Assembly: GCA_964431555.1 (NCBI GenBank)
Contig: CAYSJW010000015.1
Location: forward strand, 41,573-105,572
Source: an uncultured Gammaproteobacteria bacterium
GTDB lineage: Bacteria; Patescibacteriota; Microgenomatia; UBA8517
Reading direction: 5' to 3'
Length of the DNA stretch: 64,000 nt
In this document: positions 3,851 through 58,480 of the stretch, piece after piece
Position numbering within the stretch: the stretch's first letter is position 1
Layout of the letters: each line of letters begins with the position of its first letter
Notes under the pieces: generated by a model
Told to the model about the DNA's origin: nothing
The model's input: the letters and a program-made list of their open reading frames with translations, nothing else
Database searches by the model: none
Program-made: the position numbers and the translations under genes

Positions 3851-5188
3851 TCATGAAACGGGAAATTTTAGGCAGAGAGTTTTTACTTCTTTGGCAATCC
3901 CCAACAAAAATTTATCTTTTGCAATTTTTTCTTTAAACATTTTCAAGAATTTACTTCTAGCTTCTGGATTTTTTGGAAGTTTATAGGGTTTGACATACTC
4001 AATGACTTCTGAAATCCACTGGGCAATTTTTATCATCTCCTTTTCTTTCATTCCCCGTGTTGTTACTGCTGGCGTGCCCAAACGAATGCCCGATGGATAA
4101 AAGGGAGGCATATCATCATTTGGCACTGAATTTCTGTTAACAATAATACCAGCAACCTCCAAAGCTTCAGCTACTATATTACCCGAAAGACCCACGGGTC
4201 TTAAATCAATCACCATTAAATGACACTCCGTTCCCCCCCCTACCAAAGTAAGTCCTTTCTTTTTAAGTTCATTCGACAAAACTAGTGCATTCTTGACAAT
4301 CTGCTTTCCGTATCTTTTAAAATCAGAGCTTATCGCTTCCTGAAGACAAACTGCAATCCCTGCGGTTGTATTGTTATGAGGACCTCCTTGCATTCCTGGA
4401 ATTATTGCTTTGTCTATTTTTGATGGAAGATCTGTATCCTTTTTAATTCCTCTTTCTGTTACCAAAATCATCGCCCCCCGAGGACCCCTAAGAGTTTTAT
4501 GAGTAGTCGTCGTCACAATGTGAGCGTAAGGAAAAGGACTTGGATAAACTTTAGCAATGATAAGTCCGACGATGTGGGAAATGTCAGTAACAAGCCAGGA
4601 ATTAATCCTATCTGCTATTTGTGCAAATTTTTTCCAATCAAAAGCCAAAGGATATGCAGTTGTTCCTATAAGCATAAGTCTTGGTTTTTCTTTTTCTGCA
4701 AGTTTTTCAATTTCCTTGTAATCCAAAAACCCATTTATATCAAGGCTAAACTGCACTGATCTAAAATATTTTCCGGAAAAAGTAATATCAGGATGTCCAT
4801 GAGTTAAATGCCCGCCCGCCGAAAGTTTCATACCCATTATCGTATCCCCAGGCTTGCAAAGAGCAAATAAAACCTCCGAATTAGCGGGAGAACCTGAATA
4901 AGGTTGGACATTCGCATAAGGTACTTTAAAAAGTTTTTTTGCTCTTTCAATTGCTAACGTTTCTACTTCGTCGATAATATTGTTGCCCTGATAATATCGT
5001 CGTCCGGGGTATCCCTCCGAGTATTTATTCATCAAAACCGATCCAACCGCAACCCTAACGGCTTTGGAGGCATAATTTTCAGAAGGAATCATCATCAAAG
5101 TTTCCCTCTGCCTTTCTTCTTCTTTTTTAATAAGCTCAAAAACTTTATCCACGTTAAATTTATTCGTTATAAAATCCCGATGTGCCAA
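3851..5188 (-). CDS. glyA: serine hydroxymethyltransferase GlyA
   Basis: LMMIPSENY, GYPGRRYY, HLTHGH and TTTTHKTLRGPRGAMIL are present. The start is called at a TTG codon, so it is uncertain. Confidence 0.9.
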   Translation of the reverse strand: MAHRDFITNKFNVDKVFELIKKEEERQRETLMMIPSENYASKAVRVAVGSVLMNKYSEGYPGRRYYQGNNIIDEVETLAIERAKKLFKVPYANVQPYSGSPANSEVLFALCKPGDTIMGMKLSAGGHLTHGHPDITFSGKYFRSVQFSLDINGFLDYKEIEKLAEKEKPRLMLIGTTAYPLAFDWKKFAQIADRINSWLVTDISHIVGLIIAKVYPSPFPYAHIVTTTTHKTLRGPRGAMILVTERGIKKDTDLPSKIDKAIIPGMQGGPHNNTTAGIAVCLQEAISSDFKRYGKQIVKNALVLSNELKKKGLTLVGGGTECHLMVIDLRPVGLSGNIVAEALEVAGIIVNRNSVPNDDMPPFYPSGIRLGTPAVTTRGMKEKEMIKIAQWISEVIEYVKPYKLPKNPEARSKFLKMFKEKIAKDKFLLGIAKEVKTLCLKFPVS

Positions 5189-5192
5189 GCTA

Positions 5193-5253
5193 AACCACTT
5201 CCGAAGTGTTTAAACCTTATGTGTCATTTCACACTTCCGAAGTGTGTCATTTC
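5193..5253. repeat. two tandem REP-like palindromes (cacttc-c-gaagtg), reverse orientation of the 55168-type core
   Basis: aaaccacttccgaagtgttt and cacacttccgaagtgtgtc lie 41 bp apart. The second lies inside the tmk 3' end and supplies its last codons and stop. Confidence 0.5.
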
Positions 5254-19050: not shown

Positions 19051-19123
19051 GCCGAGATAGCTCAGCGGTTAGAGCACCTGTTTTGTAAACAGGGGGTCAA
19101 GGGTTCAAATCCCTTTCTCGGCT
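19051..19123 (+). tRNA. tRNA-Thr (anticodon TGT)
   Basis: Cloverleaf read by hand: acceptor gccgaga/tctcggc, anticodon loop tt-TGT-aa, T-arm gggttcaaatccc. Confidence 0.85.
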
Positions 19124-19144
19124 CAAAAATCCAATAAAATCTTA

Positions 19145-19229
19145 GTCAGGTTGCCGGAGTGGACAATCGGAGCAGTCTGTAAAACTGCCGCCCGGATGGG
19201 CTTCGGGGGTTCGAATCCCTCACCTGACA
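19145..19229 (+). tRNA. tRNA-Tyr (anticodon GTA), long variable arm
   Basis: Acceptor gtcaggt/acctgac, anticodon loop ct-GTA-aa, long variable arm and T-arm ggttcgaatcc. Confidence 0.85.
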
Positions 19230-19341
19230 CCTAAGAAAAGTATTTTTGAAAAGAAAAAAAATGCCTAAAAACAACCACTCTCTTAGTATACTCTTCTTCC
19301 TTTAAAAATATGCTATTCTACATAAAAATACTGAATAATTT

Positions 19342-20412
19342 ATGAATATAAATGATATAGACTACTATCTTCCCCGAGAATTAATCGCGCAAAAGCCGGC
19401 AAATCCAAGAGACACATCCAAACTCTTAATTCTTAATCGAAGTTCAGGTGAAATAAAACACACCATATTTCACAACATCACAGATCATTTAGGAAAAAAA
19501 GACGTTTTGGTCTTTAACAAATCAAAAGTTTTCCCGGCCAGACTTTATGGACGAAAAAAAAGTAAGGGAAAAGTAGAAGTTCTAATTTTAAGATTTCTCG
19601 GCAAAAGCGATTCTATTTGCGAAGTAATAACTAAACCCGGTCTTTTTCTTTATGAAAAAATTCTATTTGATGGTTTTGAAGGAAAGGTAATAAAAAGAAG
19701 CGGTTATATAACTGTCATGGAATTTAATCTCCCCTACCAAAAATTTCTAAAGAAAATTAATATCTTAGGTCATACTCCAATTCCTCCTTACATAAATAAA
19801 ACCGATCTATCAGAAAAAGAACTGCGGGAAAAATACCAAACTGTCTATGCCAAAACAGTTGGATCAGCAGCAGCCCCAACCGCAGGATTGCATTTCACAA
19901 AGGAACTCTTAAGGAAAATAGAAAAAAACGGCATCCAAACAGAATTTGTTACCCTTCACATCGGATTGGGAACTTTCGCTTCAATCAAAGAAAAGGACAT
20001 AGAAAAACACAAAATTTACAAAGAATACTTTGAAGCAGACCTTGAAACAATCAAACGCTTAAATAAAGCTAAAAGGAGTGGAAAAAGAATTATCGCTGTC
20101 GGAACAACAACCACCAGAGTTCTAGAAACCTTAGTTGACGAAGATTCAAAACTAGCTTCAAAATATAATTCAAATTTTACAAATCTTTACATCTACCCTC
20201 CTTACAAATTCAAATTCGTGGACGCGTTAATAACAAATTTTCACCTTCCCAAATCAACCTTGCTTGCCTTAATTAGTGCATTTGTTTCTTTTCCAAATAC
20301 AGAAAATATATTCACCAACTTTCAATCAAGTTTATTGGGTAAAGCATACGAAGAGGCAATTGCAAAAGAATACCGGTTTTTTTCTTTTGGAGACGCCATG
20401 TTTATAATATAA
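19342..20412 (+). CDS. queA: S-adenosylmethionine:tRNA ribosyltransferase-isomerase QueA
   Basis: DYYLPRELIAQKPANPRD, VFNKSKVFPARL and GTTTTRVLE motifs. Confidence 0.9.
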   Translation: MNINDIDYYLPRELIAQKPANPRDTSKLLILNRSSGEIKHTIFHNITDHLGKKDVLVFNKSKVFPARLYGRKKSKGKVEVLILRFLGKSDSICEVITKPGLFLYEKILFDGFEGKVIKRSGYITVMEFNLPYQKFLKKINILGHTPIPPYINKTDLSEKELREKYQTVYAKTVGSAAAPTAGLHFTKELLRKIEKNGIQTEFVTLHIGLGTFASIKEKDIEKHKIYKEYFEADLETIKRLNKAKRSGKRIIAVGTTTTRVLETLVDEDSKLASKYNSNFTNLYIYPPYKFKFVDALITNFHLPKSTLLALISAFVSFPNTENIFTNFQSSLLGKAYEEAIAKEYRFFSFGDAMFII

Positions 20413-20424
20413 ATTTTAATTTTA

Positions 20425-21405
20425 CTATTGTGCGTTAATAAATTTCGGCTGTCCTACCGAAACCATGTATGTAGGCATTAGTTTATAATCGGAAATATTT
20501 CCATTTACATCGTAAATAAGCTCAACAGCAAGACCCTTTTTAGTTTCTTCACTCCACATTTGATCAAATACAAAGTTGCCCAATGAATAAAAAACTGGTT
20601 TTCCATTTATAAAATCCCAATCCTGCACCCAGTGGGGATGATGACCCATAATAACATCAGCTCCGTATTCCATTATTTCTTTTGCCAAAATCCGAACACT
20701 CTCTAAAGCCCTATCTCTGTATTCCACACCCCAATGCATAGAAACAACCAGAATATCAACTTCCTTATCAGATTCCAAAATTAAATCTACTTCATCCTTA
20801 TTTAACTTGGGATTAACTTGCTCTGACTTGTCAAAACCCAAAAAACCAAAGGTTAAACCTTTTTTTTCTATTTTCACCAGTTTACCCACTCCTGTAGTCA
20901 ATATTCCCGCTTCGGACAAATATCTAATCGTCTGATCAAGACCATTTTTACCGTAATTTTCAATATGATTATTAGCAAGATTTACAACATCAACACCGGA
21001 AAACTTTAAACCCTCAACAAAAGATTTACTTGTGCAAAAAATATAACCTGAATCCTTCATCGGACAAGAATCAATAATTGGACTCTCCAAATTAAAAAAG
21101 GCAATATCAGAACTTCTCAATGCGTTAGCAACCCATTTAAAAGGAAAGACAAAATCACCATCCTTGTAGCCTCTAATCATTACAGATCTTCCAAGCATTA
21201 CATCTCCTGCTAAAAATAGACTAACTTTACTTTTCTCATCTTTTGAATTTTTTAGGTTGTAAATGTCAAGATTATTTGAATTCTCACTTCTTTTAAGATC
21301 ATAAAAATAGAAAAATTTAAAAAACAATAAGGAAGACAAAAAAGTAACGAAAAAGACCAAAAAACACAAAACCAACCAATGAAGAAACTTCAGAAGGTTA
21401 GTCAC
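20425..21405 (-). CDS. CapA-family metallophosphoesterase (poly-gamma-glutamate synthesis-type)
   Basis: N-terminal TM segment, and the SMHWGVEY and GADVIMGHHPHW calcineurin-like motifs. Confidence 0.7.
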   Translation of the reverse strand: MTNLLKFLHWLVLCFLVFFVTFLSSLLFFKFFYFYDLKRSENSNNLDIYNLKNSKDEKSKVSLFLAGDVMLGRSVMIRGYKDGDFVFPFKWVANALRSSDIAFFNLESPIIDSCPMKDSGYIFCTSKSFVEGLKFSGVDVVNLANNHIENYGKNGLDQTIRYLSEAGILTTGVGKLVKIEKKGLTFGFLGFDKSEQVNPKLNKDEVDLILESDKEVDILVVSMHWGVEYRDRALESVRILAKEIMEYGADVIMGHHPHWVQDWDFINGKPVFYSLGNFVFDQMWSEETKKGLAVELIYDVNGNISDYKLMPTYMVSVGQPKFINAQ

Positions 21406-21414
21406 ATTTTATAC

Positions 21415-21516
21415 TTACCTTCCCCCTAATGATGCAAGGATTCCAACCACCACTACGGCTAGAACCGCACACGCAATAAGGGTATTTACTAACTCCTTAT
21501 GCTGATCCTTTGACAT
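21415..21516 (-). CDS. possible 33-aa hydrophobic micro-protein (MSKDQHKELVNTLIACAVLAVVVVGILASLGGR)
   Basis: Hand-translated. A single TM-like segment, upstream of the 21523..22350 gene. Not in the ORF track because it is under 60 aa. Confidence 0.2.
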   Translation of the reverse strand: MSKDQHKELVNTLIACAVLAVVVVGILASLGGR

Positions 21517-21522
21517 ATTCTT

Positions 21523-22350
21523 TTATAAAGCCAAAAGCACCGCTCCCGCGATAACCAATATACCAAAGCCAACACTCAACAAAGTAGGCAAGGAAAAACC
21601 TGCATCAGGAAGATTTCCACCTGCTCCAGCTGTAGGAGTTGGTGTCAAAGTTTTTGTAGGGGTTGCTGTAACAGAAGCGGTAGGTGTTGCTGTAACTGTC
21701 AATTTTAAGGTTGGAGTGGGGGTAGTTGTTACCTTAACTGAAGGTGTAGGTGAAGCAGTAACTGATCCAGCAATCGAATAACTACCTGTGCTTGTGGGAA
21801 CAAGCAAAATATCCTGCCCATCACTTTTTCTGGTTATAACAGAGTTTGCGTTATCAAATCGAATAACAAATGGTGAAACCTGCGGGCTTCTTTCAACATT
21901 CAGTTTTATATTTGCTAAAAGCGTTTCGCTTGTCGTTGTAAAACCTGCTGCTGAAGTATTTGCACAACCTATATCTATAATTACAACATCTCCACTCAAG
22001 GAGGAGTCTTGAGTGGGACAAGTCCAGTCACCCGATGACAAAAGTGAAGAATTTATTTCAATCGATGAAACAGTTATTTCTGGGGTAGAACCGGTAAAGG
22101 GATAGGTTAATCTAATAGCTACTCCGTTAACAATAACACCTTTAGGATTAAAATAAACACTTGTATTTATAGTATCCCCTACATTATAAGTACCCGTCTG
22201 GGGGTTTATAGAAACCGTTGCACTACCTGTGGGAGTTGATGCCTGTTCTTCTATATTTTGCTTTTCTTTAAGAAGCATTAAACCAGCAACAAAACCGCCT
22301 ATCGCGACAACTATAATTATCAAAGCTACAAAAACCTTCTTGGCAGACAT
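21523..22350 (-). CDS. cell-surface protein with N-terminal signal anchor, Thr/Pro-rich linker and C-terminal LPDAG + hydrophobic tail
   Basis: The linker is a TPTPT-type repeat region (TTTPTPTLKLTVTATPTASVTATPTKTLTPTPT), followed by GGNLPDAGFSLPTLLSVGFGILVIAGAVLLAL at the extreme C-terminus. Confidence 0.5.
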   Translation of the reverse strand: MSAKKVFVALIIIVVAIGGFVAGLMLLKEKQNIEEQASTPTGSATVSINPQTGTYNVGDTINTSVYFNPKGVIVNGVAIRLTYPFTGSTPEITVSSIEINSSLLSSGDWTCPTQDSSLSGDVVIIDIGCANTSAAGFTTTSETLLANIKLNVERSPQVSPFVIRFDNANSVITRKSDGQDILLVPTSTGSYSIAGSVTASPTPSVKVTTTPTPTLKLTVTATPTASVTATPTKTLTPTPTAGAGGNLPDAGFSLPTLLSVGFGILVIAGAVLLAL

Positions 22351-22515
22351 ACTTTTATCTTTATAAATTATTAAAGCATGACTAATAACATCTTTGCAAG
22401 TCCTATTTTAGGTTTAAAATAAATTACCATTTCAAAAAACTTAAATTCATAATTTCTACTATATTTTTATACCCTATTTCTATTAAAATAATAAATAAAG
22501 TCTTACGTCACCATT

Positions 22516-22588
22516 GCCGTCGTAGCTCAGATGGTAGAGCGTGCCCTTGGTAAGGGCAAGGTCACCGGTTCAATCCCGGTCGACGGCT
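22516..22588 (+). tRNA. tRNA-Thr (anticodon GGT)
   Basis: Acceptor gccgtcg/cgacggc, anticodon loop tt-GGT-aa, T-arm ccggttcaatcccgg. Confidence 0.85.
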
Positions 22589-22697
22589 CAAAATAAATTT
22601 GAAAATGTAAAATAAAGAAAAATTATTTCAAATATCGACAAGATAAAATCACAAGTGTTATAATCCTTTTGTTTAAAAAATTTAGATTCATCAAAAT

Positions 22698-22871
22698 ATG
22701 GCCAAAAAAGGAGCAAGAGAAATAGTTGGATTAATTTGTCCAAACTGCAAAAGTCAAAATTACGTAACTACACGTAACAAGATTAATATTGAAGGAAAAT
22801 TGACACTAAAAAAATACTGTAAAATCTGCAAAAAAGTAACTCTACATAAAGAAACTACAAAATTAAAGTAA
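22698..22871 (+). CDS. rpmG: 50S ribosomal protein L33
   Basis: Hand translation gives MAKKGAREIVGLICPNCKSQNYVTTRNKINIEGKLTLKKYCKICKKVTLHKETTKLK (57 aa), with the CxxC...CxxC L33 pattern. It is under 60 aa and so absent from the ORF track. It sits between tRNA-Thr and tRNA-Trp, which is the typical position. Confidence 0.85.
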   Translation: MAKKGAREIVGLICPNCKSQNYVTTRNKINIEGKLTLKKYCKICKKVTLHKETTKLK

Positions 22872-23050
22872 TATAATCAAATTAAAAATATCCTTTCTTT
22901 ATTTTTTCAAAAAATCTGGCAATTTAAAAAATAATTTTTAACTTTAAGAAGAATTTAAATATTGATATAATTAACCAACTTTATAAAAAAATATATTTTT
23001 TAAACATAATTTTCATTTTAAAAATTCAAAAAAAATCTAAGTAAAAACAA

Positions 23051-23124
23051 AGGGGTGTCGTTCAGTGGTAGGACCCGGGTCTCCAAAACCCGTGACGGGG
23101 GTTCAATTCCCTCCACCCCTGCCA
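23051..23124 (+). tRNA. tRNA-Trp (anticodon CCA), CCA end encoded
   Basis: Acceptor aggggtg/cacccct, anticodon loop ct-CCA-aa, T-arm gggggttcaattccc. Confidence 0.85.
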
Positions 23125-52385: not shown

Positions 52386-52580
52386 ATGGTAGTTGTTGTC
52401 AAAAAAAAGGGAGAATCGGAAGACAGACTTATTGCCAGGTTCAAAAAAAAGGTTGTGGATTCTGGAATCCTGCAGGAAGTTCGTGACCGCCAAAGGTATA
52501 TTCCCCCGTCCGAAAAAAGAAAGGAACAAAAAAAGCGAATTAAGTTTTTGATCGAGCTTGAGAAAAAGCGCAATTATTAA
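52386..52580 (+). CDS. rpsU: 30S ribosomal protein S21
   Basis: ESEDRLIARFKKKV..SGIL.EVRDRQRYIPPSEKRK pattern. Its 3' end overlaps rnhB convergently by 41 nt. Confidence 0.8.
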   Translation: MVVVVKKKGESEDRLIARFKKKVVDSGILQEVRDRQRYIPPSEKRKEQKKRIKFLIELEKKRNY

Positions 52581-53295
52581 AAAAAGTTTCCACAAACTTC
52601 TTTCTGTGATAAGGGGTCAAACCGTATTTTAATATTGCTTTTGTATGATCGCTTGTGCCATAGCCCTTGTTTTTTTCCCATCCATAAACACTATACTTTT
52701 CTGATAATGAAATCATCAATTTGTCCCTAAATACCTTGGCTATAATGCTTGCTGCAGCAATAGAAATGCTTTTTTCATCGCCGTTTTTGATGGCCATTTG
52801 TTTCCCGCAAAATCTGCAAAGTTTACCATTTAAAACTTTTTTATTTTTTAATCTTTCGTTTTTTCTAGGCATACATAATCCCCTAACATACGGTATATAA
52901 AATGCATCAATGAGTAAATAATCTATACATATGTTGTATCTTTTATATAAATCTTTAATAGCCCGACGAAAAGCCGAATTTGTCGCCTTGAGGATACCGT
53001 ACCTATTTATTTCTGAGACACTCCCCACCCCTAAACCATAAGCAAAAGAATTTTTTCTAATCCAAAGATTTGCTTTTTCTCTTTCCAAAGAAGTCAATTT
53101 TTTAGAATCATCAATTATCACCTTGCAACCGGATTCAATAATAGGAAGATTAATGACTTTATTTGGTGCGAAAGCACACACACTTGCAACAACCGGTCCT
53201 GCAAAGCAACCTCTTCCCACTTCATCACAACCGGCCACCACCTTAAAACCCTGATTCCAAAGTTTTTTTTCAAAATAGAAATTAGGTAAAATCAT
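52540..53295 (-). CDS. rnhB: ribonuclease HII
   Basis: VAGCDEVGRGCFAGPVV N-terminal motif and the catalytic DSK/D residues. Confidence 0.85.
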   Translation of the reverse strand: MILPNFYFEKKLWNQGFKVVAGCDEVGRGCFAGPVVASVCAFAPNKVINLPIIESGCKVIIDDSKKLTSLEREKANLWIRKNSFAYGLGVGSVSEINRYGILKATNSAFRRAIKDLYKRYNICIDYLLIDAFYIPYVRGLCMPRKNERLKNKKVLNGKLCRFCGKQMAIKNGDEKSISIAAASIIAKVFRDKLMISLSEKYSVYGWEKNKGYGTSDHTKAILKYGLTPYHRKKFVETFFNNCAFSQARSKT

Positions 53296-53343: not shown

Positions 53344-53529
53344 GTGAAGAATATAATCAATTACATAAGTTCTGTAAAGCTGGAGTTATCCAAGGTAATT
53401 TGGCCAAAAAGAAATGATGTTGTAAAATTAACCATCATTATATTTCTTATTTCCGGTATTGTAGCGTTATACCTGGGAATTCTAGATCTTTCATTTACAA
53501 AAATCTTTGAAGTTATATTAACAAGTTAA
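53344..53529 (+). CDS. secE: preprotein translocase subunit SecE
   Basis: 61 aa ending in a single TM segment (LSKVIWPKRNDVVKLTIIIFLISGIVALYLGILD), directly upstream of nusG. Confidence 0.8.
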   Translation: MKNIINYISSVKLELSKVIWPKRNDVVKLTIIIFLISGIVALYLGILDLSFTKIFEVILTS

Positions 53530-53535
53530 AATAAT

Positions 53536-54165
53536 ATGCCAAATGATGATCAAAACAATAAAGAAGAAATAGCCGTAAGAGAAAAAGGGACTGGCAATAA
53601 AAAAATACCCGGTCATATCGTAATCAACACCCAAGAGAACGATAAAGCATGCTGGTATGTTGTACACACCACATCCGGTCATGAAGTTAGGGTTGCCGAA
53701 ACTTTGCGACAAAGAGTTGAAACGATGGGTCTTACTGACAAAGTATTTGAACTTTTAGTTCCCACCCAAGACAGAGTAATCATAAGAAGCGGTAAAAAAG
53801 CAACCGTTAAGGAAAAGATTTTTCCGGGATACATGCTTATTAAAATGATCATGGATGACCCTACCTGGCTGGCTGTGAGAACAACTCCGGGTATAACAGG
53901 TTTTGTCGGAGCGGGAAAACAACCCACTCCCCTTTCGGAATTAGAGGTTCAAAATATTCAGAAATTCATTTCAACTCCCGCCAAAAGATTCAAAACTAGA
54001 TTCAGCAAAGGCGAAGCTGTTAAAATTACAGACGGACCATTTTCAGACTTTTTAGGAACAATCAATGAAATTGATGAAGAAAAGGGAAAGGTCAAGGTTT
54101 TGGTTTCAATTTTTGGAAGGGAAACTCCCGTTGAGCTTGATCTTCTCCAAATAGCCAAAGTTTAA
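53536..54165 (+). CDS. nusG: transcription termination/antitermination factor NusG
   Basis: NGN domain (WYVVHTTSGHE..V) and KOW domain (KGEAVKITDGPFSDFLGTINEID...). Confidence 0.9.
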   Translation: MPNDDQNNKEEIAVREKGTGNKKIPGHIVINTQENDKACWYVVHTTSGHEVRVAETLRQRVETMGLTDKVFELLVPTQDRVIIRSGKKATVKEKIFPGYMLIKMIMDDPTWLAVRTTPGITGFVGAGKQPTPLSELEVQNIQKFISTPAKRFKTRFSKGEAVKITDGPFSDFLGTINEIDEEKGKVKVLVSIFGRETPVELDLLQIAKV

Positions 54166-54222
54166 AACCATATAAAACGTCTTTGATATATAAATATAGG
54201 CAAAACTCTCGCTTACTCTAAG

Positions 54223-55164
54223 ATGGATGAAACAGGTGAAAACCCAAAAACCAACGAACCTCAAGAAAAATTAAGTAGAGATTACCAAAAATTCAAACAA
54301 CTTGTTGAAAGTTTTTTTACAAAAAATCCTGTTAAAAAGGAACCAGATTATGACTTATCTCCCCATCTTGAAAAATTAAGTGAGGAGGAAAATTCCTTAC
54401 TTCAAAGAATAGGACAAATGGACCCAAAAGAATTTCTTGAAATGTTTACCCAAGACCCCCCTTCGATAATGTTTAAAAATGATAAAGGAGAAATAACTCG
54501 ACTTAAGCCAAATTATATAATTACACCTCCCCCACCTTCTGATTTAGAACTTGCTCAAAGAAAAACCTTTATTCCTGAAAATCTCAACGAGGATGAAAAA
54601 ATCAATCTTGAATTAGCTTTATTAAATCTAGCAGCTTATCTAAAAACTCCAAAAGTTGAGGACGGTTTCGGAGAAAACCACGAAAATCAAAGAGTTCCTT
54701 ACAGAAATGGAATGAACATAATTTTTAAAATTATAGAAATAGTATGTTCTTCAAAATCAAATATTCTTAAGGCATACAACGACTTTTACACAAATAACTC
54801 ACTCACTACAAACAAACAAACGCTAGTTTATTCTTCTACAAACATACTTGTGACCCTCGCTTATCATAACAAAGAGCAATGGGCTAAAACGGTTTTAGAT
54901 GTATTAGAAATGGTAATAAATATTCAAGCTAACGAAAAGCAAATAAAAAATATAAAAGAACAAATAACTTTTCTTAATAAAATGCTTTCAACACTTAATC
55001 TTGATGAAACTACAATTAAAACACACCAAGAAAAAATAAAAGAATTAAGCGAAAAATTAAATGGTTTAGAAAAACCCCTATCAAATACAGAAAAAGAACC
55101 TATTTTCAGAGAGGCTGCAAGAAGAATATTACAAATCTTCACCTCTCCTGTCCTGACCAAGTAA
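54223..55164 (+). CDS. hypothetical protein (313 aa)
   Basis: No family recognised. It lies inside the insertion between nusG and rplK. Confidence 0.4.
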   Translation: MDETGENPKTNEPQEKLSRDYQKFKQLVESFFTKNPVKKEPDYDLSPHLEKLSEEENSLLQRIGQMDPKEFLEMFTQDPPSIMFKNDKGEITRLKPNYIITPPPPSDLELAQRKTFIPENLNEDEKINLELALLNLAAYLKTPKVEDGFGENHENQRVPYRNGMNIIFKIIEIVCSSKSNILKAYNDFYTNNSLTTNKQTLVYSSTNILVTLAYHNKEQWAKTVLDVLEMVINIQANEKQIKNIKEQITFLNKMLSTLNLDETTIKTHQEKIKELSEKLNGLEKPLSNTEKEPIFREAARRILQIFTSPVLTK

Positions 55165-55167
55165 CAA

Positions 55168-55187
55168 CCACTTCGGAAGTGGATTAG
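55168..55187 (+). repeat. REP-like element: palindrome ccacttc-g-gaagtgg + ATTAG(CTT), left flank of the RAYT gene
   Basis: Perfect 7-1-7 palindrome read directly. It begins 4 nt after the stop codon of the 313-aa ORF. Confidence 0.6.
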
Positions 55188-55204
55188 CTTGCCACATCGG
55201 GATA

Positions 55205-55873
55205 TTATTCCAAAACCAAGTGCTTGATTTTATCAAGTTTCCTCTGATAATCAGCATTATTTAAAACAAATTTTCGATAATCATTCTTATTTCTAAAAAA
55301 AGAAAGAATCAACTCTTTTTGACAAATACCATTAATGTCAAAAATATACTCAGAATAAGATGACCAAGAATATTTCTCAATTTCAGATAAGTTCTTAATC
55401 AAAAAAGAACTGAAAGGATTAAGATGTATATAGCGTGATAGATGAATCAATTGCTCGTCGTTCTCTACTCTCACTGCTTTAAATTGTCCCTGAAAAAGAG
55501 CCCCAATTCTATTTTCTTTCTCATTAATATACCTAGAATATCCTATTTGAAAATTACGGATGAATTTGGCTATTCCATCTTCTTCTTTCTGCTTTAAAAG
55601 AAGGTGAAAATGGTTAGGCATTAGACAAAAGCAAATAATATCAACAACTCTCTGCATTTTTTTTAAACTCTCTTCATAATTTTTTCTTATCTCACCCGCA
55701 GATTTAATAAATTTAGAATAACGGATCGGGGCATCACCAACTTGATAAAAACTCAAAAGATTAATAGCACGTCTATAATCTCTCTTATCAAAAAAGATAT
55801 TACTTAAATTTACTCCACGGTTAAAAATATGATAAACCTGACCATTAACAAAAGGTATCTTTCTGACTGGCAT
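55205..55873 (-). CDS. IS200-like Y1 (HuH) transposase, probable REP-associated tyrosine transposase (RAYT)
   Basis: YHIFNRG N-terminal block, HuH motif MPNHFHLLL, a Tyr-containing C-terminal block (IGYSRYIN, RYIHLNP), and a size of about 220 aa. Flanked by identical REP palindromes. Confidence 0.75.
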   Translation of the reverse strand: MPVRKIPFVNGQVYHIFNRGVNLSNIFFDKRDYRRAINLLSFYQVGDAPIRYSKFIKSAGEIRKNYEESLKKMQRVVDIICFCLMPNHFHLLLKQKEEDGIAKFIRNFQIGYSRYINEKENRIGALFQGQFKAVRVENDEQLIHLSRYIHLNPFSSFLIKNLSEIEKYSWSSYSEYIFDINGICQKELILSFFRNKNDYRKFVLNNADYQRKLDKIKHLVLE

Positions 55874-55940
55874 CTTAATTTATTACAGTTAACAATTTAC
55901 AATTTAATTTTAAACCAAAATACCGATCTGTCAAGCTGAA

Positions 55941-55960
55941 CCACTTCGGAAGTGGATTAA
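55941..55960 (+). repeat. REP-like element: palindrome ccacttc-g-gaagtgg + ATTAA, right flank of the RAYT gene
   Basis: Identical 15-bp palindrome to the one at 55168; the tail has one substitution. Confidence 0.6.
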
Positions 55961-55973
55961 AAGCTAACCTAAC

Positions 55974-57611
55974 TTATGTGGGATTCTTTTTAAAAACATT
56001 TTTCATCTCATTATAGCCGGGAACACTTAATGCCAAAACCCTGTTTCCAACTTTAAAAAGCGGAATATGACCAAACCAAGTCTGGCGATGCTCTCTTTCC
56101 CAAATAAGCCTATTTTTCAAAGAAGCATCAATCAAGGTATCGTTTAAAGTTGTTATATGATCCCATATACCCTCGTAGCAATTTTTCAAAGGTCCATCTA
56201 TAAATCTTTTCAGCAACTTATAAGCCTTTCTTGCCCTTTTTTGCTCCGGATTATTCGTCTTACCAAAACCCTCCCCCATATACTTTCCATCAAGATAAAA
56301 GTCCAAAGTAATATGTTCCCCTCCAGGCTTTAAAACCCTTGCGGATTCTTTTGCATAGCCTTCCACTATCTGAGGTCCATGCACTTTTCCTCCCATTGCC
56401 CCGACAACATAAGTGGAAAAAACTAAATCAAAACTTTCATCTGGAAAAGGCATCTTTGATGCATCAGCTTGAATCCAATTTATCTTTATACCAGCTTCTT
56501 CTAGTTTCCTTTTTACATCTGAAGGGAGACTTTCAAAATTCCTCTTTCCATTTTCAATCTGCTCTTTATTGTATTCAAGTACATCAATTTGTAAATTCCT
56601 TTTTCCTGAGTTTAAAAACTTCTCAGCAATCTTAAGAGAAGTCATAATCGGCCCATCCCCAACGGCCAATATTTTTGAACCACCGGAAATCTTCTCTGCA
56701 ATTTCAGCAGCAACTCCATCTCTTCCCACCGCGTCATTGGGATAATATTCCGTTTCTTTTGAATATTTTTCCTTAGAAATTAAAGCTAAGGGCAAACCAT
56801 CAATTTGCTTAAATTCCCCCTCCGAAAACTGAGGAATTGCTTGGGTATTCATCTGATGGAAAAAATCATAAACAGGCCCTATCACCTCGTAGAAATACTG
56901 CGAACCTGAAGATTTGTATTCAGGCTTTATCTCTCTGGAAAAAGCAAGCTTGGCAATTTCAAGCATCGCCTCGCTTTGATAATAAGGATAGTAAACACCC
57001 ATTCTTTCCATCAAACCTCCAACAAACTTTGATTTAGCCAAACTGGAAAGAGCACGAACTAAGGGATAATTTTTTTCCTCTGTGATTTTTTTCAGATGGG
57101 AAAAAAACTGATTATATTTAGGTCTTCCTAACTCATCTTTTACCACATTCCCTTTTTCGTCAATCTCATAGACAAACCATTCAGCGGCTTTTATTAAATC
57201 ATCAGGTTTCATCGGTTTCTGTCCCAAGAATTCTTTTGGAAAAACTATATCGGGTAAAGGAGCTTCTTTTTCCAAGTCCCCTTCTTTCCATTTGTAATTT
57301 CCCCTTTTTTTGACAACAACGCATTCTCTTCCCGCATAGACTTCAATCTGAATTACACCCCCGGAAGTTTCACCTAAACCAGCTTCCAGTTTACCTTCAT
57401 TAAGACTATCAGCCTCTTTACCATTAGATCTAATAGAATTGTCAGTATTTATTTCAACCAGCTCGTTTCCTTGTCTACCATTTACTTTTTCAGAAGAACC
57501 CTCTCTTACCAGCTTTTCACTTTCATTTCCCCCCTTAGCCACGTCGGGAATATTTTCAGGTTCTTCTGAAAAACCTTTTTCTATTTCATTACCTTCCATA
57601 TTTAAAATCAC
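55974..57611 (-). CDS. class I SAM-dependent methyltransferase domain protein with ~300-aa N-terminal extension of unknown function
   Basis: The C-terminal half carries ILAVGDGPI (a motif I variant), IDVLEYN (acidic loop), ADASKMPFPDESFDLVFS (motif II) and VLKPGGE (motif III). The N-terminal part is not recognised. Confidence 0.6.
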   Translation of the reverse strand: MILNMEGNEIEKGFSEEPENIPDVAKGGNESEKLVREGSSEKVNGRQGNELVEINTDNSIRSNGKEADSLNEGKLEAGLGETSGGVIQIEVYAGRECVVVKKRGNYKWKEGDLEKEAPLPDIVFPKEFLGQKPMKPDDLIKAAEWFVYEIDEKGNVVKDELGRPKYNQFFSHLKKITEEKNYPLVRALSSLAKSKFVGGLMERMGVYYPYYQSEAMLEIAKLAFSREIKPEYKSSGSQYFYEVIGPVYDFFHQMNTQAIPQFSEGEFKQIDGLPLALISKEKYSKETEYYPNDAVGRDGVAAEIAEKISGGSKILAVGDGPIMTSLKIAEKFLNSGKRNLQIDVLEYNKEQIENGKRNFESLPSDVKRKLEEAGIKINWIQADASKMPFPDESFDLVFSTYVVGAMGGKVHGPQIVEGYAKESARVLKPGGEHITLDFYLDGKYMGEGFGKTNNPEQKRARKAYKLLKRFIDGPLKNCYEGIWDHITTLNDTLIDASLKNRLIWEREHRQTWFGHIPLFKVGNRVLALSVPGYNEMKNVFKKNPT

Positions 57612-57934
57612 TAAGTTTTTTTATCAAGCTTGTCTAAAATAAAATTATATCTCCGAATCTCCAAAATTAAAGAAGCTTTCTCAAAATCATCTTTCATCTC
57701 TTCCTCCAAACTCCATCCCCCTCCCCTTTTTTGCCAGATGCCGTAAGCAACTTTCTTTATCCTTTCATCCATTTCCAAACCAAAAATACTTCCACCCCCC
57801 AAAATCCTATTTTCTAAAAATTGCAAAGTATCTGGGTCAACAGAATTTCTTAATCTTCCTTTTCTTTCCTCTAAAATTTCTCTTAACCTTTCTTTACCTA
57901 TCAATGATATTACCCCCTCTTTACATATTAACAT
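57611..57934 (-). CDS. hypothetical protein (107 aa)
   Basis: ORF only; no family recognised. Confidence 0.35.
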   Translation of the reverse strand: MLICKEGVISLIGKERLREILEERKGRLRNSVDPDTLQFLENRILGGGSIFGLEMDERIKKVAYGIWQKRGGGWSLEEEMKDDFEKASLILEIRRYNFILDKLDKKT

Positions 57935-57953
57935 GAATCTAATAAAATAAGCT

Positions 57954-57983
57954 CACCTCGTTTTAAAAGGCGAGGGAGATTAG
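57954..57983 (+). repeat. REP-like variant hairpin (cacCTCG-10 nt loop-CGAGg) followed by GATTAG(CC)
   Basis: The hairpin-plus-GATTAG tail matches the architecture of the other elements. It lies 70 bp upstream of rplK. Confidence 0.4.
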
Positions 57984-58054
57984 CCAAAGAAAGCTGGTCG
58001 GATAATATCCTCCTGACAAAAATCTTGGCTTACTAAACAAATTCAAAACTTTTT

Positions 58055-58480
58055 ATGGCAAAAAAAGTAAAAACAATTATCAAAGTCAATTTACCGGCAG
58101 GTGCGGCAACTCCCGCTCCTCCTTTGGGTCCAGCTTTGGGTCAGCACGGAGTGGCTATCATGGATTTTGTCAAGCAATATAACGACAAAACCGCTTCAAT
58201 GAAGGGTCAAATCGTACCCGCCATAATAACCATTTACGAGGATAGAACCTTTGATTTTGAATTAAGGAAAGCACCAGTTGCCGAAATGATCAAAAAGGAA
58301 TTGGGACTGGAGAAAGGATCTGGATCCACAGGAAGAGAAACTATAGCGACCTTAAGCAAAGAACAAGTTGAAAAAATTGCCAAGGAAAAAATGGACGATT
58401 TTAATACAGATGACCTTGAATCGGCAAAGAGAATAGTTACGGGTACTGCCAAGAGTATGGGGGTGAAAGTTGAAAGCTGA
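58055..58480 (+). CDS. rplK: 50S ribosomal protein L11
   Basis: MAKKV..IIKV.LPAG.ATPAPP.GPALGQHGV..M.F.K.YN..T pattern. Confidence 0.9.
   Translation: MAKKVKTIIKVNLPAGAATPAPPLGPALGQHGVAIMDFVKQYNDKTASMKGQIVPAIITIYEDRTFDFELRKAPVAEMIKKELGLEKGSGSTGRETIATLSKEQVEKIAKEKMDDFNTDDLESAKRIVTGTAKSMGVKVES

Follow-up and report, generated by a model that had tools for sequence, protein, structure and literature searches.

The secE-nusG and rplK-rplA genes of a Woesebacteria/CPR bacterium (Microgenomates) with a tiny genome are separated by a gap of 3,889 bp that contains four ORFs of 313, 222, 545 and 107 aa. An earlier note on this DNA described the segment as an island, possibly associated with REPs and a RAYT, inside a core operon. 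The locus raises the questions of what this DNA consists of, whether it disrupts the genes around it, and how it came to lie there.

Organization of the nusG-rplK junction

Gene calls and coordinates in the window (the whole 64-kb stretch of DNA analysed) confirmed that about 3.9 kb with four ORFs lies between secE-nusG and rplK-rplA (Table 1). Three of the four gap genes (RAYT, ORF545 and ORF107) are antisense to the core genes. Co-transcription with nusG and the ribosomal protein genes, which had been suggested for all four, is contradicted for these three by their strand and is possible for ORF313 alone. ORF313, the sole co-directional gene, starts 57 nt downstream of nusG, and no terminator-like site was detected between the two in a terminator scan; from this arrangement, ORF313 is probably read through from nusG. 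At the far end of the locus, the rplA product has an N-terminal extension of ~85 aa.

Table 1. Coordinates of genes, palindromes and predicted signals in the window
Feature	Position	Strand	Support or remark
REP doublet	5169-5250	-	nhmmer 50.4 bits; between two conserved genes
secE	53344-53529	+	Pfam SecE 1.7e-14; TIGR00964
nusG	53536-54165	+	TIGR00922 204 bits, above cutoff; left anchor of variable junction
ORF313	54223-55164	+	Gene call
REP1	55165-55208	+	nhmmer 51.5 bits, E 6e-14; model positions 21-64
Y1/RAYT-like gene	55205-55873	-	Pfam Y1_Tnp 40.2 bits, cutoff 23
RAYT promoter-like site	55907-55934	-	TTGACA-16-TAAAAT, 11/12 consensus match; consensus match only
REP2	55919-55959	+	nhmmer 42.2 bits, E 5e-11; model positions 2-42
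ORF545	55974-57611	-	Pfam Methyltransf_11/25
ORF107	57611-57934	-	ORF list; DUF2934 match sub-threshold only
rplK promoter-like site	57920-57948	+	TTTACA-17-TAAAAT
rplK leader hairpin	57952-57980	+	CUCACCUCG...CGAGGGAGAU
rplK (L11)	58055-58480	+	TIGR01632 185 bits; right anchor of variable junction
rplA (L1)	58590-59420	+	Pfam Ribosomal_L1; TIGR01169 126.6 bits, below cutoff 216

The rplK gene has its own promoter-like site, the spacer of which contains the ORF107 start codon. L118, L116, L126 and L099, all members of the clade that carries the REPs, have an equivalent site, placed identically with respect to the leader hairpin. The rplK leader is structured (fold z -2.6 to -4.95), and about 20 lineages conserve its hairpin (57956-57980: CCTCG..CGAGGGAGAT) upstream of rplK regardless of gap size, 13-256 nt from rplK and, where gaps are large, 0.6-3.8 kb from nusG. 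This hairpin resembles the L1-binding autoregulatory site of rplKA as described by Fu et al. 2013 (PMC3616713) and is considered a putative site of this type. As in that description, it precedes rplK and has an A.G juxtaposition followed by an unpaired, bulged A, and across the 20 or so lineages it is conserved with a covarying stem; it differs in that some lineages have A.A for A.G and that no Rfam match was obtained.

Because three of the genes are antisense and rplK has its own promoter and leader, no essential or core transcript is split. The insert is placed after the secE-nusG unit ends and before the conserved rplK promoter and leader, so the core operon is not interrupted as had been proposed. 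Since no essential transcript is interrupted, the site would tolerate turnover of blocks.

Variability of the junction in relatives

The synteny set consisted of 80 orthologous nusG loci. Lengths of the nusG-rplK gap, taken from 71 reference loci, extend from 1 to 4,611 bp, with 29 loci at 100 bp or less and 33 above 300 bp. The short gaps and the canonical order in the near relative L118 support the view that the segment is inserted relative to relatives. No homologs of ORF313, ORF545 or ORF107 were found within about 10 kb of nusG in any of the 80 reference loci, and comparison at this depth showed the three genes to be specific to the window genome. The RAYT departs from the lineage-specific content that had been supposed for all four genes, since it is present at the same site and in the same orientation in two sister lineages, L116 (80% identity) and L127/L128 (71%). 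The gap ORFs of relatives are almost all mutually unrelated, with 60 sequences left partnerless in clustering. The compared loci thus show the junction to be a lineage-wide variable spot, hypervariable throughout Microgenomates. The large gaps of other Microgenomates contain no repeated palindromes, and variability of the junction can arise without REPs.

The RAYT-like gene and its REP palindromes

The 222-aa protein contains an HUH motif (H88-F-H90) and the catalytic Tyr148 in RYIHLNP, both invariant in a 31-sequence alignment. The top PDB match of its AF2 model (pLDDT 90) is E. coli TnpA_REP (4ER8), and it scores 51.8 bits against NCBIfam REP_Tyr_transpos, below the cutoff of 80. With this best structural match and a cognate palindrome on either side of the gene, the proposed REP/RAYT association was upheld.

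An identical 21-mer, AACCACTTCGGAAGTGGATTA, is found at 55166 and 55939; allowing up to 2 mismatches, it has 7 matches in 64 kb versus 0.04 expected by chance. The REP family is a ~56-nt palindrome, of which REP1 and REP2, flanking the RAYT gene, are truncated copies. REP1 occupies the space where the convergent ORF313 and RAYT genes meet, with the ORF313 stop codon in its degenerate 5' arm and with its inner hairpin CCACTTCGGAAGTGG and RAYT-proximal 3' arm intact. REP2 retains the RAYT-proximal 5' arm and inner hairpin, has lost the distal 3' arm beside the ORF545 stop, and is overlapped by the -35 box of the RAYT promoter-like site. Both copies are truncated, and neither folds better than shuffled sequence does (z -0.55 for REP1, -1.76 for REP2), so the REP system may be decaying in the window. 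The palindrome of L127 has a compensatory stem change.

REP sites in the 64 kb number only three, the third being a doublet that is inverted relative to REP1 and REP2. In the window, nhmmer detected no REP at the ORF107/rplK edge or in the nusG-ORF313 interval, and the same search found this family absent from the 80 reference loci. The earlier note had listed REPs at 55166, 55939 and 57954. The first two are retained; the third was rejected as a REP copy, being a different hairpin, the one resident in the rplK leader and conserved before rplK in about 20 lineages.

REP-bounded blocks in the close clade

L118 represents an empty site (secE-nusG-REP-rplK-rplA-rplJ-rplL), and its single REP matches the two outermost REPs of L116, the first as well as the last. 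An additional radical-SAM block of 2.5 kb in L099 is flanked on each side by a duplicate of REP positions 8-48. In L104 the RAYT block is missing, and one breakpoint there is at the centre of the palindrome. The o97 gene of L104 and ORF313 of the window are each inserted after the nusG stop and before a 5'-truncated REP. At a second locus with orthologous flanks, the window has only the REP doublet where L120 has a REP, a 179-aa ORF and another REP. These alignments show that one and the same REP delimits unlike gene blocks within this narrow clade, and that the points at which homology between relatives breaks off lie within REPs. In the loci compared, no cargo gene recurred at a second REP site. 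L097 has a REP-linked insertion with a DDE transposase, and REPs may be mere targets for other elements of this kind.

ORF313 and the ORF107-ORF545 pair

ORF313 gave no match of note to Pfam, PHROG or defence families, and matched only itself in a word-indexed search of 5.8e9 proteins. An exhaustive HMMER search retrieved 19 remote relatives at 23-33% identity; the family is small and fast-evolving.

ORF545 has 541 aa if begun at the ATG used by JGI. In its predicted model (AF2 pTM 0.77), residues 1-86 are disordered, residues 87-300 form a domain without structural match, and a class-I SAM methyltransferase core followed by a beta-rich C-terminus comes after residue 300. The methyltransferase domain that had been placed at the C-terminus is present, but at ~residues 300-440 it is central to C-terminal, with ~100 residues beyond. 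Its PDB matches are small-molecule or natural-product methyltransferases. Only 4 homologs were found in 5.8e9 proteins, and their neighbourhoods are clusters with AMP-binding enzymes and aminotransferases. By sequence and model, ORF545 is predicted to be a rare methyltransferase of small-molecule type. ORF107, directly upstream on the same strand, is probably in one operon with it, and is absent beside the ORF545 homologs elsewhere.

Origin of the insert

The 3.9 kb is probably accessory DNA that accumulated at a permissive operon boundary, between the secE-nusG 3' end and the rplK promoter and L1-type leader. It would comprise three independent modules: ORF313, ending at REP1; the RAYT-type HUH/Y1 gene with its own promoter, bracketed by the two truncated REPs; and the minus-strand ORF107-ORF545 pair. 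Within the clade, we infer that blocks are gained, lost and replaced via REPs, either by RAYT-catalysed cutting and rejoining of single-stranded REP hairpins or by ordinary recombination between REP copies.

A possible but less favoured explanation is generic hot-spot turnover, in which 'minimal mobile element'-type swaps would proceed by homologous recombination in the nusG and rplK flanks, with the REPs and RAYT as bystanders, that is, as terminator hairpins and one more passenger. As terminators, REPs often follow the 3' ends of genes, a position that would likewise put them between blocks. Hypervariable gaps with unrelated cargo across Microgenomates, free of repeated palindromes outside the REP clade, are consistent with such turnover, as are the equally variable rplA-rplJ junction, a cargo composition within the genome's range, and the lack of any cargo at two different REP sites. 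However, the REP-clade breakpoints are inside REPs rather than in the flanking genes, REP segments are duplicated around inserted blocks, and the pattern recurs at the second locus (L120). Moreover, the RAYT module has a pS of 0.49 versus L116, compared with 0.70-0.80 for its flanks, and flank-mediated exchange would not yield lower RAYT divergence.

Synonymous divergence from L116 below that of the host genes would suit an autonomous IS200-like element, made up of the RAYT gene and its two hairpins (55165-55959, ~795 bp), that prefers DNA downstream of nusG and arrived independently of the cargo, an origin that we regard as unlikely. The Y1 transposase fold and motifs and the size and layout of the unit are similar to IS200, three lineages, with core genes at synonymous saturation, have it at the same site, and homologs occur singly in other conserved clusters, such as between murG and ftsW in L129. 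The gene is nevertheless single-copy in 64 kb, and its product, at 222 aa, far exceeds the average of <150 aa for IS200/IS605 TnpA proteins (PMC2817692) and is structurally closest to RAYT rather than to the TnpA of IS608 or ISDra2. The palindrome also occurs away from the gene and without it, which is REP behaviour. The pS values of 0.63-0.68 in other lineage pairs, near saturation, are compatible with old vertical residence, and saturation may set in at a lower level owing to AT-rich third codon positions.

It is very improbable that the four genes work together with the neighbouring transcription and translation genes and are expressed with them in an extended operon, for example with the methyltransferase modifying L11 or the ribosome. 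Adjacency to rplK and the unterminated 57-nt spacing of co-directional ORF313 from nusG speak for this proposal, which is largely refuted by the absence of the genes from the junction in 80/80 relatives, the antisense strand of three of them, the separate conserved promoter and leader of rplK, and the lack of a PrmA-family match for ORF545, whose structural neighbours and homolog neighbourhoods point elsewhere. An integrase-mediated genomic island or prophage remnant could explain a discrete 3.9-kb block missing from relatives, but is highly improbable: there is no integrase or recombinase domain, flanking direct repeat of >=14 nt, adjacent tRNA, PHROG match or relative in viral contigs. The block is instead a mosaic of at least three modules, each with a different distribution, and the single island envisaged earlier was abandoned. 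An assembly chimera made by the ~56-nt repeats, conceivable in metagenome assemblies, is hardly credible, as the window contig's arrangement is recorded in two samples, every alternative arrangement recurs in independent metagenomes (L116/L126, 98% identity; L104/L086, 97.7%), and REPs are presumably shorter than typical assembly k-mers.

Comparison with known systems

The 'minimal mobile elements', or core-flanked hot spots, of Neisseria have conserved flanks and strain-variable whole genes and require no dedicated mobility gene. The junction is similar in having different whole-gene content between two conserved flanks, here the nusG and rplK units, but some of its breakpoints are in REPs instead of the flanks.

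Chromosomal integrons and CALINs (attC clusters without integrase) share with this locus a fixed position and an array of blocks separated by palindromic sites in one orientation. Their likeness extends to cargo genes that mostly face one way, are mostly of unknown function and differ between close relatives, and single-strand hairpin recombination is a plausible mechanism. In contrast, the window has no IntI tyrosine recombinase, its sites are REPs rather than attC, and an HUH nuclease is the candidate enzyme; none of the cassettes was observed at two positions, and several blocks have two or three genes.

IS200/IS605 elements (IS608, ISDra2) have the same Y1 HUH fold, subterminal hairpins on either side and a compact unit (~0.8 kb here), and by analogy the chemistry would take place on single-stranded DNA hairpins. 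The window unit differs in its larger protein and in lacking multiple copies and tnpB, and its two hairpins have the same sequence, also present as solo copies.

Described REP/RAYT systems (Nunvar 2010, PMC2817692; Bertels 2017, PMC5581495; E. coli TnpA_REP structure 4ER8) are mainly proteobacterial, whereas the window host is a CPR bacterium. The window protein has 222 aa versus 165 aa in the 4ER8 chain and falls below the NCBIfam RAYT cutoff, and its REP, long at ~56 nt, forms a near-perfect palindrome that lacks a GTAG or CGTC head. The copies on either side of the gene are direct rather than inverted, the copies are few (three sites in 64 kb), and here REPs delimit blocks of protein-coding genes. 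The systems agree in an HUH/Y1 enzyme best matched by TnpA_REP, a gene closely bracketed by its cognate palindrome, and a palindrome that also occurs elsewhere without the gene, with the RAYT single-copy in the available sequence. REP and RAYT also co-vary, as seen in the compensatory stem change of the 71% lineage, and the chromosomal position that the gene shares across sister lineages is what a vertically kept gene would show.

Gene organization and transcription

The window was matched to its 149-kb source contig (JGI 3300022548, Ga0212092_1000030), and its host is a Candidatus Woesebacteria bacterium (Microgenomates, CPR); the G+C content of the window is 34%. RNase HII, SecE, NusG, L11 and L1 were recognized by family scans. 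Four open reading frames (ORFs) had been placed by an earlier note between nusG and rplK, namely ORF313, a RAYT gene encoding an HUH/Y1 enzyme, ORF545 and ORF107 (numbers are lengths in residues), and these and their coordinates proved correct when the ORFs were checked. Overall, the observation made in that note is confirmed in part, and its interpretation is likewise supported in part.

The four genes had been thought possibly co-transcribed with nusG and the ribosomal protein genes, which their strand excludes for three of the four: RAYT, ORF545 and ORF107 lie on the minus strand, so none of them can be on one transcript with nusG or rplK. Judged from strand, spacing and consensus sites, ORF313 is likely transcribed by read-through out of nusG that stops at REP1, the RAYT gene likely has its own promoter, and ORF107-ORF545 transcription is likely directed away from rplK. 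The insert separates two transcription units without disturbing the promoter or leader of rplK, which explains why it is tolerated; Escherichia coli, too, has secE-nusG and rplKAJL-rpoBC in separate operons. The ORF107 start codon falls inside the spacer of the rplK promoter, so the ORF107-ORF545 promoter must overlap the rplK leader in antisense, and transcriptional interference with rplK is possible.

Several features of the surrounding genes were also observed. At its 3′ end, the convergent RNase HII gene shares about 40 nt with an ORF to which JGI gives the annotation ribosomal protein S21. The genes for tRNA-Trp and tRNA-Thr/Tyr are about 30 kb away from secE, and thus the common tRNA-Trp-secE-nusG linkage is broken in the window too. 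The N-terminus of L1 is extended by about 85 residues rich in lysine and glutamate, an extension that the closest relatives have as well, and the rplA product scores under the TIGR01169 cutoff.

Coordinates of the features discussed, in the window unless another locus is named
Feature	Locus	Coordinates	Strand	Remarks
REP doublet	window	5169-5250		REP1/REP2 family, inverted orientation
tRNA-Trp and tRNA-Thr/Tyr genes	window	19051-23124
tRNA-Trp gene	window	23051
64-residue ORF	window	52386-52580	+	S21 per JGI
RNase HII gene (rnhB)	window	52540-53295	-
secE	window	from 53344
nusG	window	to 54165
ORF313	window		+	between nusG and RAYT gene
REP1	window	55165-55208		5′ arm absent
RAYT (Y1_Tnp protein)	window		-	222 aa; Pfam Y1_Tnp 40.2 bits (cutoff 23); NCBIfam NF047646 (REP_Tyr_transpos) 51.8 bits, below the equivalog cutoff of 80
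Predicted RAYT promoter	window	55934-55907
REP2	window	55919-55959		3′ arm absent
ORF545	window		-	SAM-methyltransferase domain
ORF107	window		-	no supported family in family scans
rplK promoter	window	57920-57948		TTTACA-17-TAAAAT
ORF107 start codon	window	57932-57934
rplK leader hairpin	window	57952-57980
rplK	window	from 58055
rplA (L1)	window	58590-59420
rplA-rplJ insert	window	59417-64000 and beyond		1-8989 in L083
ORF610	window	59417-61249	-
ORF368	window	61993-63099	-
RAYT-like genes	L012	2947-3525, 13992-14654, 18444-19115		Woesebacteria
RAYT-like gene	L129	6001-6672		murG/ftsW
RAYT-like gene	L070	3607-4215
RAYT-like fragment	L009	10649-10786		directly after nusG
Radical-SAM block	L099	780-2780

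A conserved hairpin in the rplK leader

Three REP-like elements had been marked in the earlier note. Those at 55166 and 55939 stand, since they share an exact 21-mer that brackets the RAYT gene; the one at 57954 belongs to a hairpin of the rplK leader. It aligns to a hairpin of the form CCUCR...YGAGGRAGAY, which is present upstream of rplK in many relatives, and in loci with a large nusG-rplK gap (0.7-3.9 kb) the hairpin is always 13-256 nt from rplK and far from nusG. A sigma-70-type promoter lies directly 5′ of the hairpin in the window, and the equivalent rplK promoter is TTTACA-17-TATAAT in four loci of relatives (L118, L116, L126 and L099).

The register of the hairpin is CUC-A-CCUCG / CGAGG-G-A-GAG. 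Its inner pairs covary, and an A·G juxtaposition followed by a bulged A is found in about 20 lineages; the A·G is present in 17 of 27 pattern matches, a few of which are probably spurious, and the bulged A is fixed by the search pattern itself. The rplK leader is significantly structured in three lineages. The L1-binding rplKA leader has been described as a 6-12-bp stem 5′ of rplK with an internal G·A pair and then an unpaired A (PMC3616713), a description that the predicted hairpin matches, and the hairpin is a putative L1-bound repressor site for rplK-rplA translation. Rfam searches of the whole window (gathering threshold) and of 57880-58120 (E≤10) gave no family match to the hairpin, only tRNAs and noise.

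Variability of the junction across Microgenomates

Species-representative genomes, from Woesebacteria and elsewhere in Microgenomates, provided 80 nusG loci of about 20 kb each, and homologs of ORF313, ORF545 and ORF107 were found in none of them. These three genes are therefore not residents of the junction in any of the 80 loci, in keeping with the proposal that the insert is lineage-specific. For the RAYT, which occupies the same site in two sister lineages, the proposal is partly contradicted.

The cluster itself, described in the earlier note as universally conserved, is broken at operon boundaries throughout Microgenomates, and the window is one instance. Among 71 loci with both genes, the nusG-rplK gap is at most 100 bp in 29, 100-300 bp in nine, 300-1000 bp in 18 and more than 1 kb in 15, the largest being 4.6 kb. 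The ORFs in these gaps are nearly all mutually unrelated, with 60 sequences left partnerless in clustering. The rplA-rplJ junction is even more variable (≤150 bp in 9/49 loci, >1 kb in 24/49); in the source contig, rplA and rplJ-rplL stand about 7 kb apart, with unannotated genes (610, 93, 368 and 703 residues, and others) in the interval. Two of these, ORF610 and ORF368, are 62% identical over about 90 N-terminal residues, which include a twin-arginine-like signal (RREFLK) and a lipobox-like motif (LAAC), and differ completely thereafter. A 32% identical homolog of ORF610 is found in L012, downstream of rplA and adjoining a RAYT copy.

The RAYT protein and its family

The HUH motif (H88-F-H90) and Y148 (within RYIHLNP) are unchanged across 31 homologs. 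Structure comparison was needed because a PDB sequence search gave only marginal matches to ISDra2 (E about 0.3). The AlphaFold model of the RAYT is confident (pLDDT 90), and its best Foldseek match is TnpA_REP of E. coli bound to a REP hairpin (PDB code 4ER8; E 3.3e-7, 185 columns). IS608 and ISDra2 (E≥5e-5, about 148-187 columns) and the IS200 transposases rank behind it. The predicted fold places the RAYT structurally nearer to TnpA_REP than to IS200/IS605 TnpA. The RAYT-like family, with members of about 224 residues, comprises 5,874 proteins at E≤1e-10, including some from Parcubacteria and Levybacteria by source assignment.

The gene is found directly 3′ of nusG, in the same convergent orientation, in the three closest lineages (100%, 80% and 71% identity). 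Homologs of about 55% identity occupy other positions, such as the gap that separates murG from ftsW, and in other relatives each RAYT homolog is bracketed by its own palindromes. RAYTs are typically single copy per genome and vertically inherited (PMC5581495); here, one tblastn match was found in the 64-kb window. Between the window and L116, the locus with the 80% identical RAYT, rnhB, secE, nusG and rplK have reached saturation at synonymous sites (pS 0.70-0.80), whereas the pS of the RAYT gene is 0.49, compared with 0.63-0.68 for RAYT genes in other lineage pairs; AT-rich third positions (GC3 0.24) may reduce the level at which pS saturates. This moderate evidence suggests that the RAYT module shares a more recent ancestry between the window and L116, by transfer or gene conversion.

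RAYT-like genes in CPR bacteria are repeatedly found singly in gaps of conserved clusters, some on the opposite strand. Among the 80 loci, one such gene is upstream of nusG and about ten are downstream; in five loci (L021, L028, L030, L042 and L053) it lies about 1-2 kb past rplJ, just past rplJ-rplL. L012 contains three divergent copies within 20 kb, 37-47% identical to that of the window and at least two of them with their own short flanking repeats, so a single small genome may harbour several REP/RAYT lineages at once.

REP elements

Comparison of copies defines the REP unit as a palindrome, nearly perfect and about 56 nt long, with the sequence TCCCGATCTGGCAAGCTAGACCACTTC-G-GAAGTGGATTAGCTTGCCACATCGGGA. 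Both REPs flanking the RAYT gene are truncated, with the RAYT-facing arm intact in each: the ORF313 stop codon lies within the remnant of the 5′ arm of REP1, and REP2 adjoins the ORF545 stop. Folded alone, REP1 and REP2 are no better than shuffled sequences (z -0.55 and -1.76), compared with z -4.7 and -6.0 for full copies in relatives. By central base and arm asymmetry the two are in direct orientation, which is only weakly defined in a near-perfect palindrome. Solo copies away from the RAYT gene are found in L124, L095 and L120 and as a doublet in the window, giving three REP sites in its 64 kb. In RAYT systems, cognate REPs are usually numerous and spread through the genome at a distance from the gene. 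A GTAG or CGTC tag on the REP head has been described for RAYT systems (PMC3733652); both tetranucleotides are absent from the aligned copies.

In the lineage with the 71% identical RAYT (L127/L128), CCACATCGGATGTGG replaces the CCACTTCGGAAGTGG of the window with a compensatory change in the inner stem; the arms are kept and both versions fold strongly. On these sequence comparisons, REP and RAYT appear to co-evolve, with the palindrome preserved by compensatory change. No repeated palindromes were found in the large gaps of the other Microgenomates searched, and thus the REP-bounded layout is not general.

REP-delimited blocks in close relatives

A metagenome scan with the REP core gave 43 pattern matches, of which about 30, in high-GC coding repeats from unrelated organisms, were discarded. 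Ten low-GC contigs came from close relatives, whose NusG and L11 are about 80-82% identical to those of the window; the source contig was not among the contigs returned. Six of the ten contigs have a REP inside their own nusG-rplK gap.

Arrangement of the nusG-rplK junction in close relatives (o, ORF followed by its length in residues)
Locus	Arrangement	Remarks
L118	nusG / REP / promoter-leader-rplK-rplA-rplJ-rplL	empty site, canonical order
L116, L126	nusG / REP / o202 / REP / RAYT / REP / o78-o293 / REP / rplK	RAYT 80% identical, same orientation
L104, L086	nusG / o97 / partial REP / o202 / o105 / partial REP / o79-o294 / REP	o202 frameshifted
L099	...o293 / REP / o182 + Cys-rich 105-aa ORF + radical-SAM/SPASM enzyme / REP / rplK

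The REPs of these arrays are in a single common orientation, and the cargo genes (those other than the RAYT gene) are mostly antisense to nusG and rplK. In pairwise DNA comparisons, homology breakpoints fall inside REPs. The single REP of the empty site matches the first and the last REP of L116 alike; the extra 2.5-kb block of L099 has REP copies on both sides, each containing positions 8-48; and the missing RAYT block of L104 ends at the palindrome centre. Both o97 in L104 and ORF313 in the window lie between the nusG stop and a 5′-truncated REP. Each arrangement recurs in a second, independent metagenome, a recurrence that speaks against assembly error.

REPs also mark differences at other loci, the first of which repeats the pattern seen at nusG-rplK. 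The REP doublet of the window lies between two adjacent conserved genes, whose orthologs in L120 flank a REP / 179-aa ORF / REP array. Relative to L124, L097 has 2.3 kb inserted at a REP, with genes for an M20 peptidase and a DDE transposase. REPs are known IS targets, and the sequence of this insertion fits such a use.

Cargo genes

Only four homologs of ORF545 were found among 5.8 billion proteins. They cluster with AMP-binding enzymes, aminotransferases and a short-chain dehydrogenase or M20 peptidase, and ribosomal genes or an ORF107 homolog were found in none of their neighbourhoods. ORF545 matches Pfam Methyltransf_11/25, and its ILAVGDGP motif is largely unchanged in the family (L315, A316, G318, D319, G320 and P321). 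The model (pTM 0.77, with residues 1-86 disordered) has 668 PDB matches at E≤1e-3, the best 50 of which all have the class I methyltransferase fold; residues 87-300 have no structural match. ORF545 is thereby predicted to adopt a class I SAM-dependent methyltransferase fold with a glycine-rich SAM motif. Its structural matches are small-molecule and natural-product methyltransferases (MitM, RebM, AtmM, TleD and LahSb); with these neighbours and no PrmA-family match, PrmA-like methylation of L11 was rejected.

ORF313 retrieved only itself in a word-indexed search and 19 remote relatives by exhaustive HMMER, the closest of which lies between an acetyl-CoA-synthetase-like gene and a transketolase gene, about 5.5 kb from its own rplA. 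PADLOC gave generic or weak matches only (ORF545 to the mad2 methyltransferase domain, ORF313 to DruC at 5.8e-5 over a coiled-coil stretch, and the L099 radical-SAM enzyme to pVip), and these were rejected as defence systems. Scans of PHROGs and viral contigs with ORF313 and the ORF545 family found nothing, and the base composition of the cargo is inside the range of the genome, with no sign of foreign origin. The L099 block, with its radical-SAM/SPASM enzyme, Cys-rich ORF and 182-residue ORF, resembles a small peptide-maturation (RiPP-like) cassette.

Proposed role of the REPs

Within the REP-bearing clade, we infer that REPs are the sites of block gain, loss and replacement, either by a RAYT that would cut and rejoin single-stranded REP hairpins, the chemistry described for TnpA_REP and IS200/IS605 enzymes, or by host recombination between REP copies. 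A strong version of this view has to contend with the variation of this junction elsewhere in Microgenomates without REPs and with the eroded state of the REPs in the window. In addition, cassette mobility was looked for and not found, no cargo protein recurring at another REP site in 133 sequences (132 loci and the window), a small sample. By a further reading, which we consider rather unlikely, the REP/RAYT pair would be an integron-like gene-capture system of this Woesebacteria clade, with an HUH single-strand nuclease as its enzyme: at a fixed site next to nusG, REP hairpins of a single orientation would serve as joints at which blocks (one or more genes with a 3′ REP) are inserted, excised or replaced by RAYT cleavage and rejoining of single-stranded DNA. 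If true, it would give RAYTs a concrete role in the accessory-gene diversity of very small genomes.

Work on RAYTs and REPs has mainly concerned Proteobacteria. The locus reveals a large RAYT-like family in CPR bacteria (more than 5,800 matches), one sub-lineage of which is confined to one chromosomal position, the 3′ flank of nusG. Where close relatives differ in gene content, the borders of the differences fall on REPs, and a clean empty site allows comparison. The secE-rplL core cluster, usually held fixed, is at its operon boundaries (nusG-rplK and rplA-rplJ) among the most variable neighbourhoods of Microgenomates. Together, these features make the hypothesis that REPs act as joints for gene gain and loss testable. 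They also caution that adjacency to ribosomal operons in CPR genomes should not be taken for evidence of co-expression or related function.

Comparison with known mobile systems

The TnpA proteins of IS200/IS605 elements average below 150 residues (PMC2817692), whereas the RAYT has 222 and its family a mode of about 224, and these elements occur as several near-identical copies per genome, in contrast to the single match in the window. Integrons combine attC sites with the IntI tyrosine recombinase, and CALINs are attC clusters that lack an integrase, whereas the sites here are REPs of a RAYT system, and a domain scan of all ORFs of the region found no recombinase domain. An integrase-type island or prophage was rejected, as the region has no integrase, tRNA/tmRNA target or phage genes, and no att-like direct repeats of ≥14 nt at the insert edges. 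Accessory genes at hot spots and the REP/RAYT system are themselves known; new are the CPR hosts, the fixed address at nusG, and the REP-delimited blocks with an empty-site comparator.
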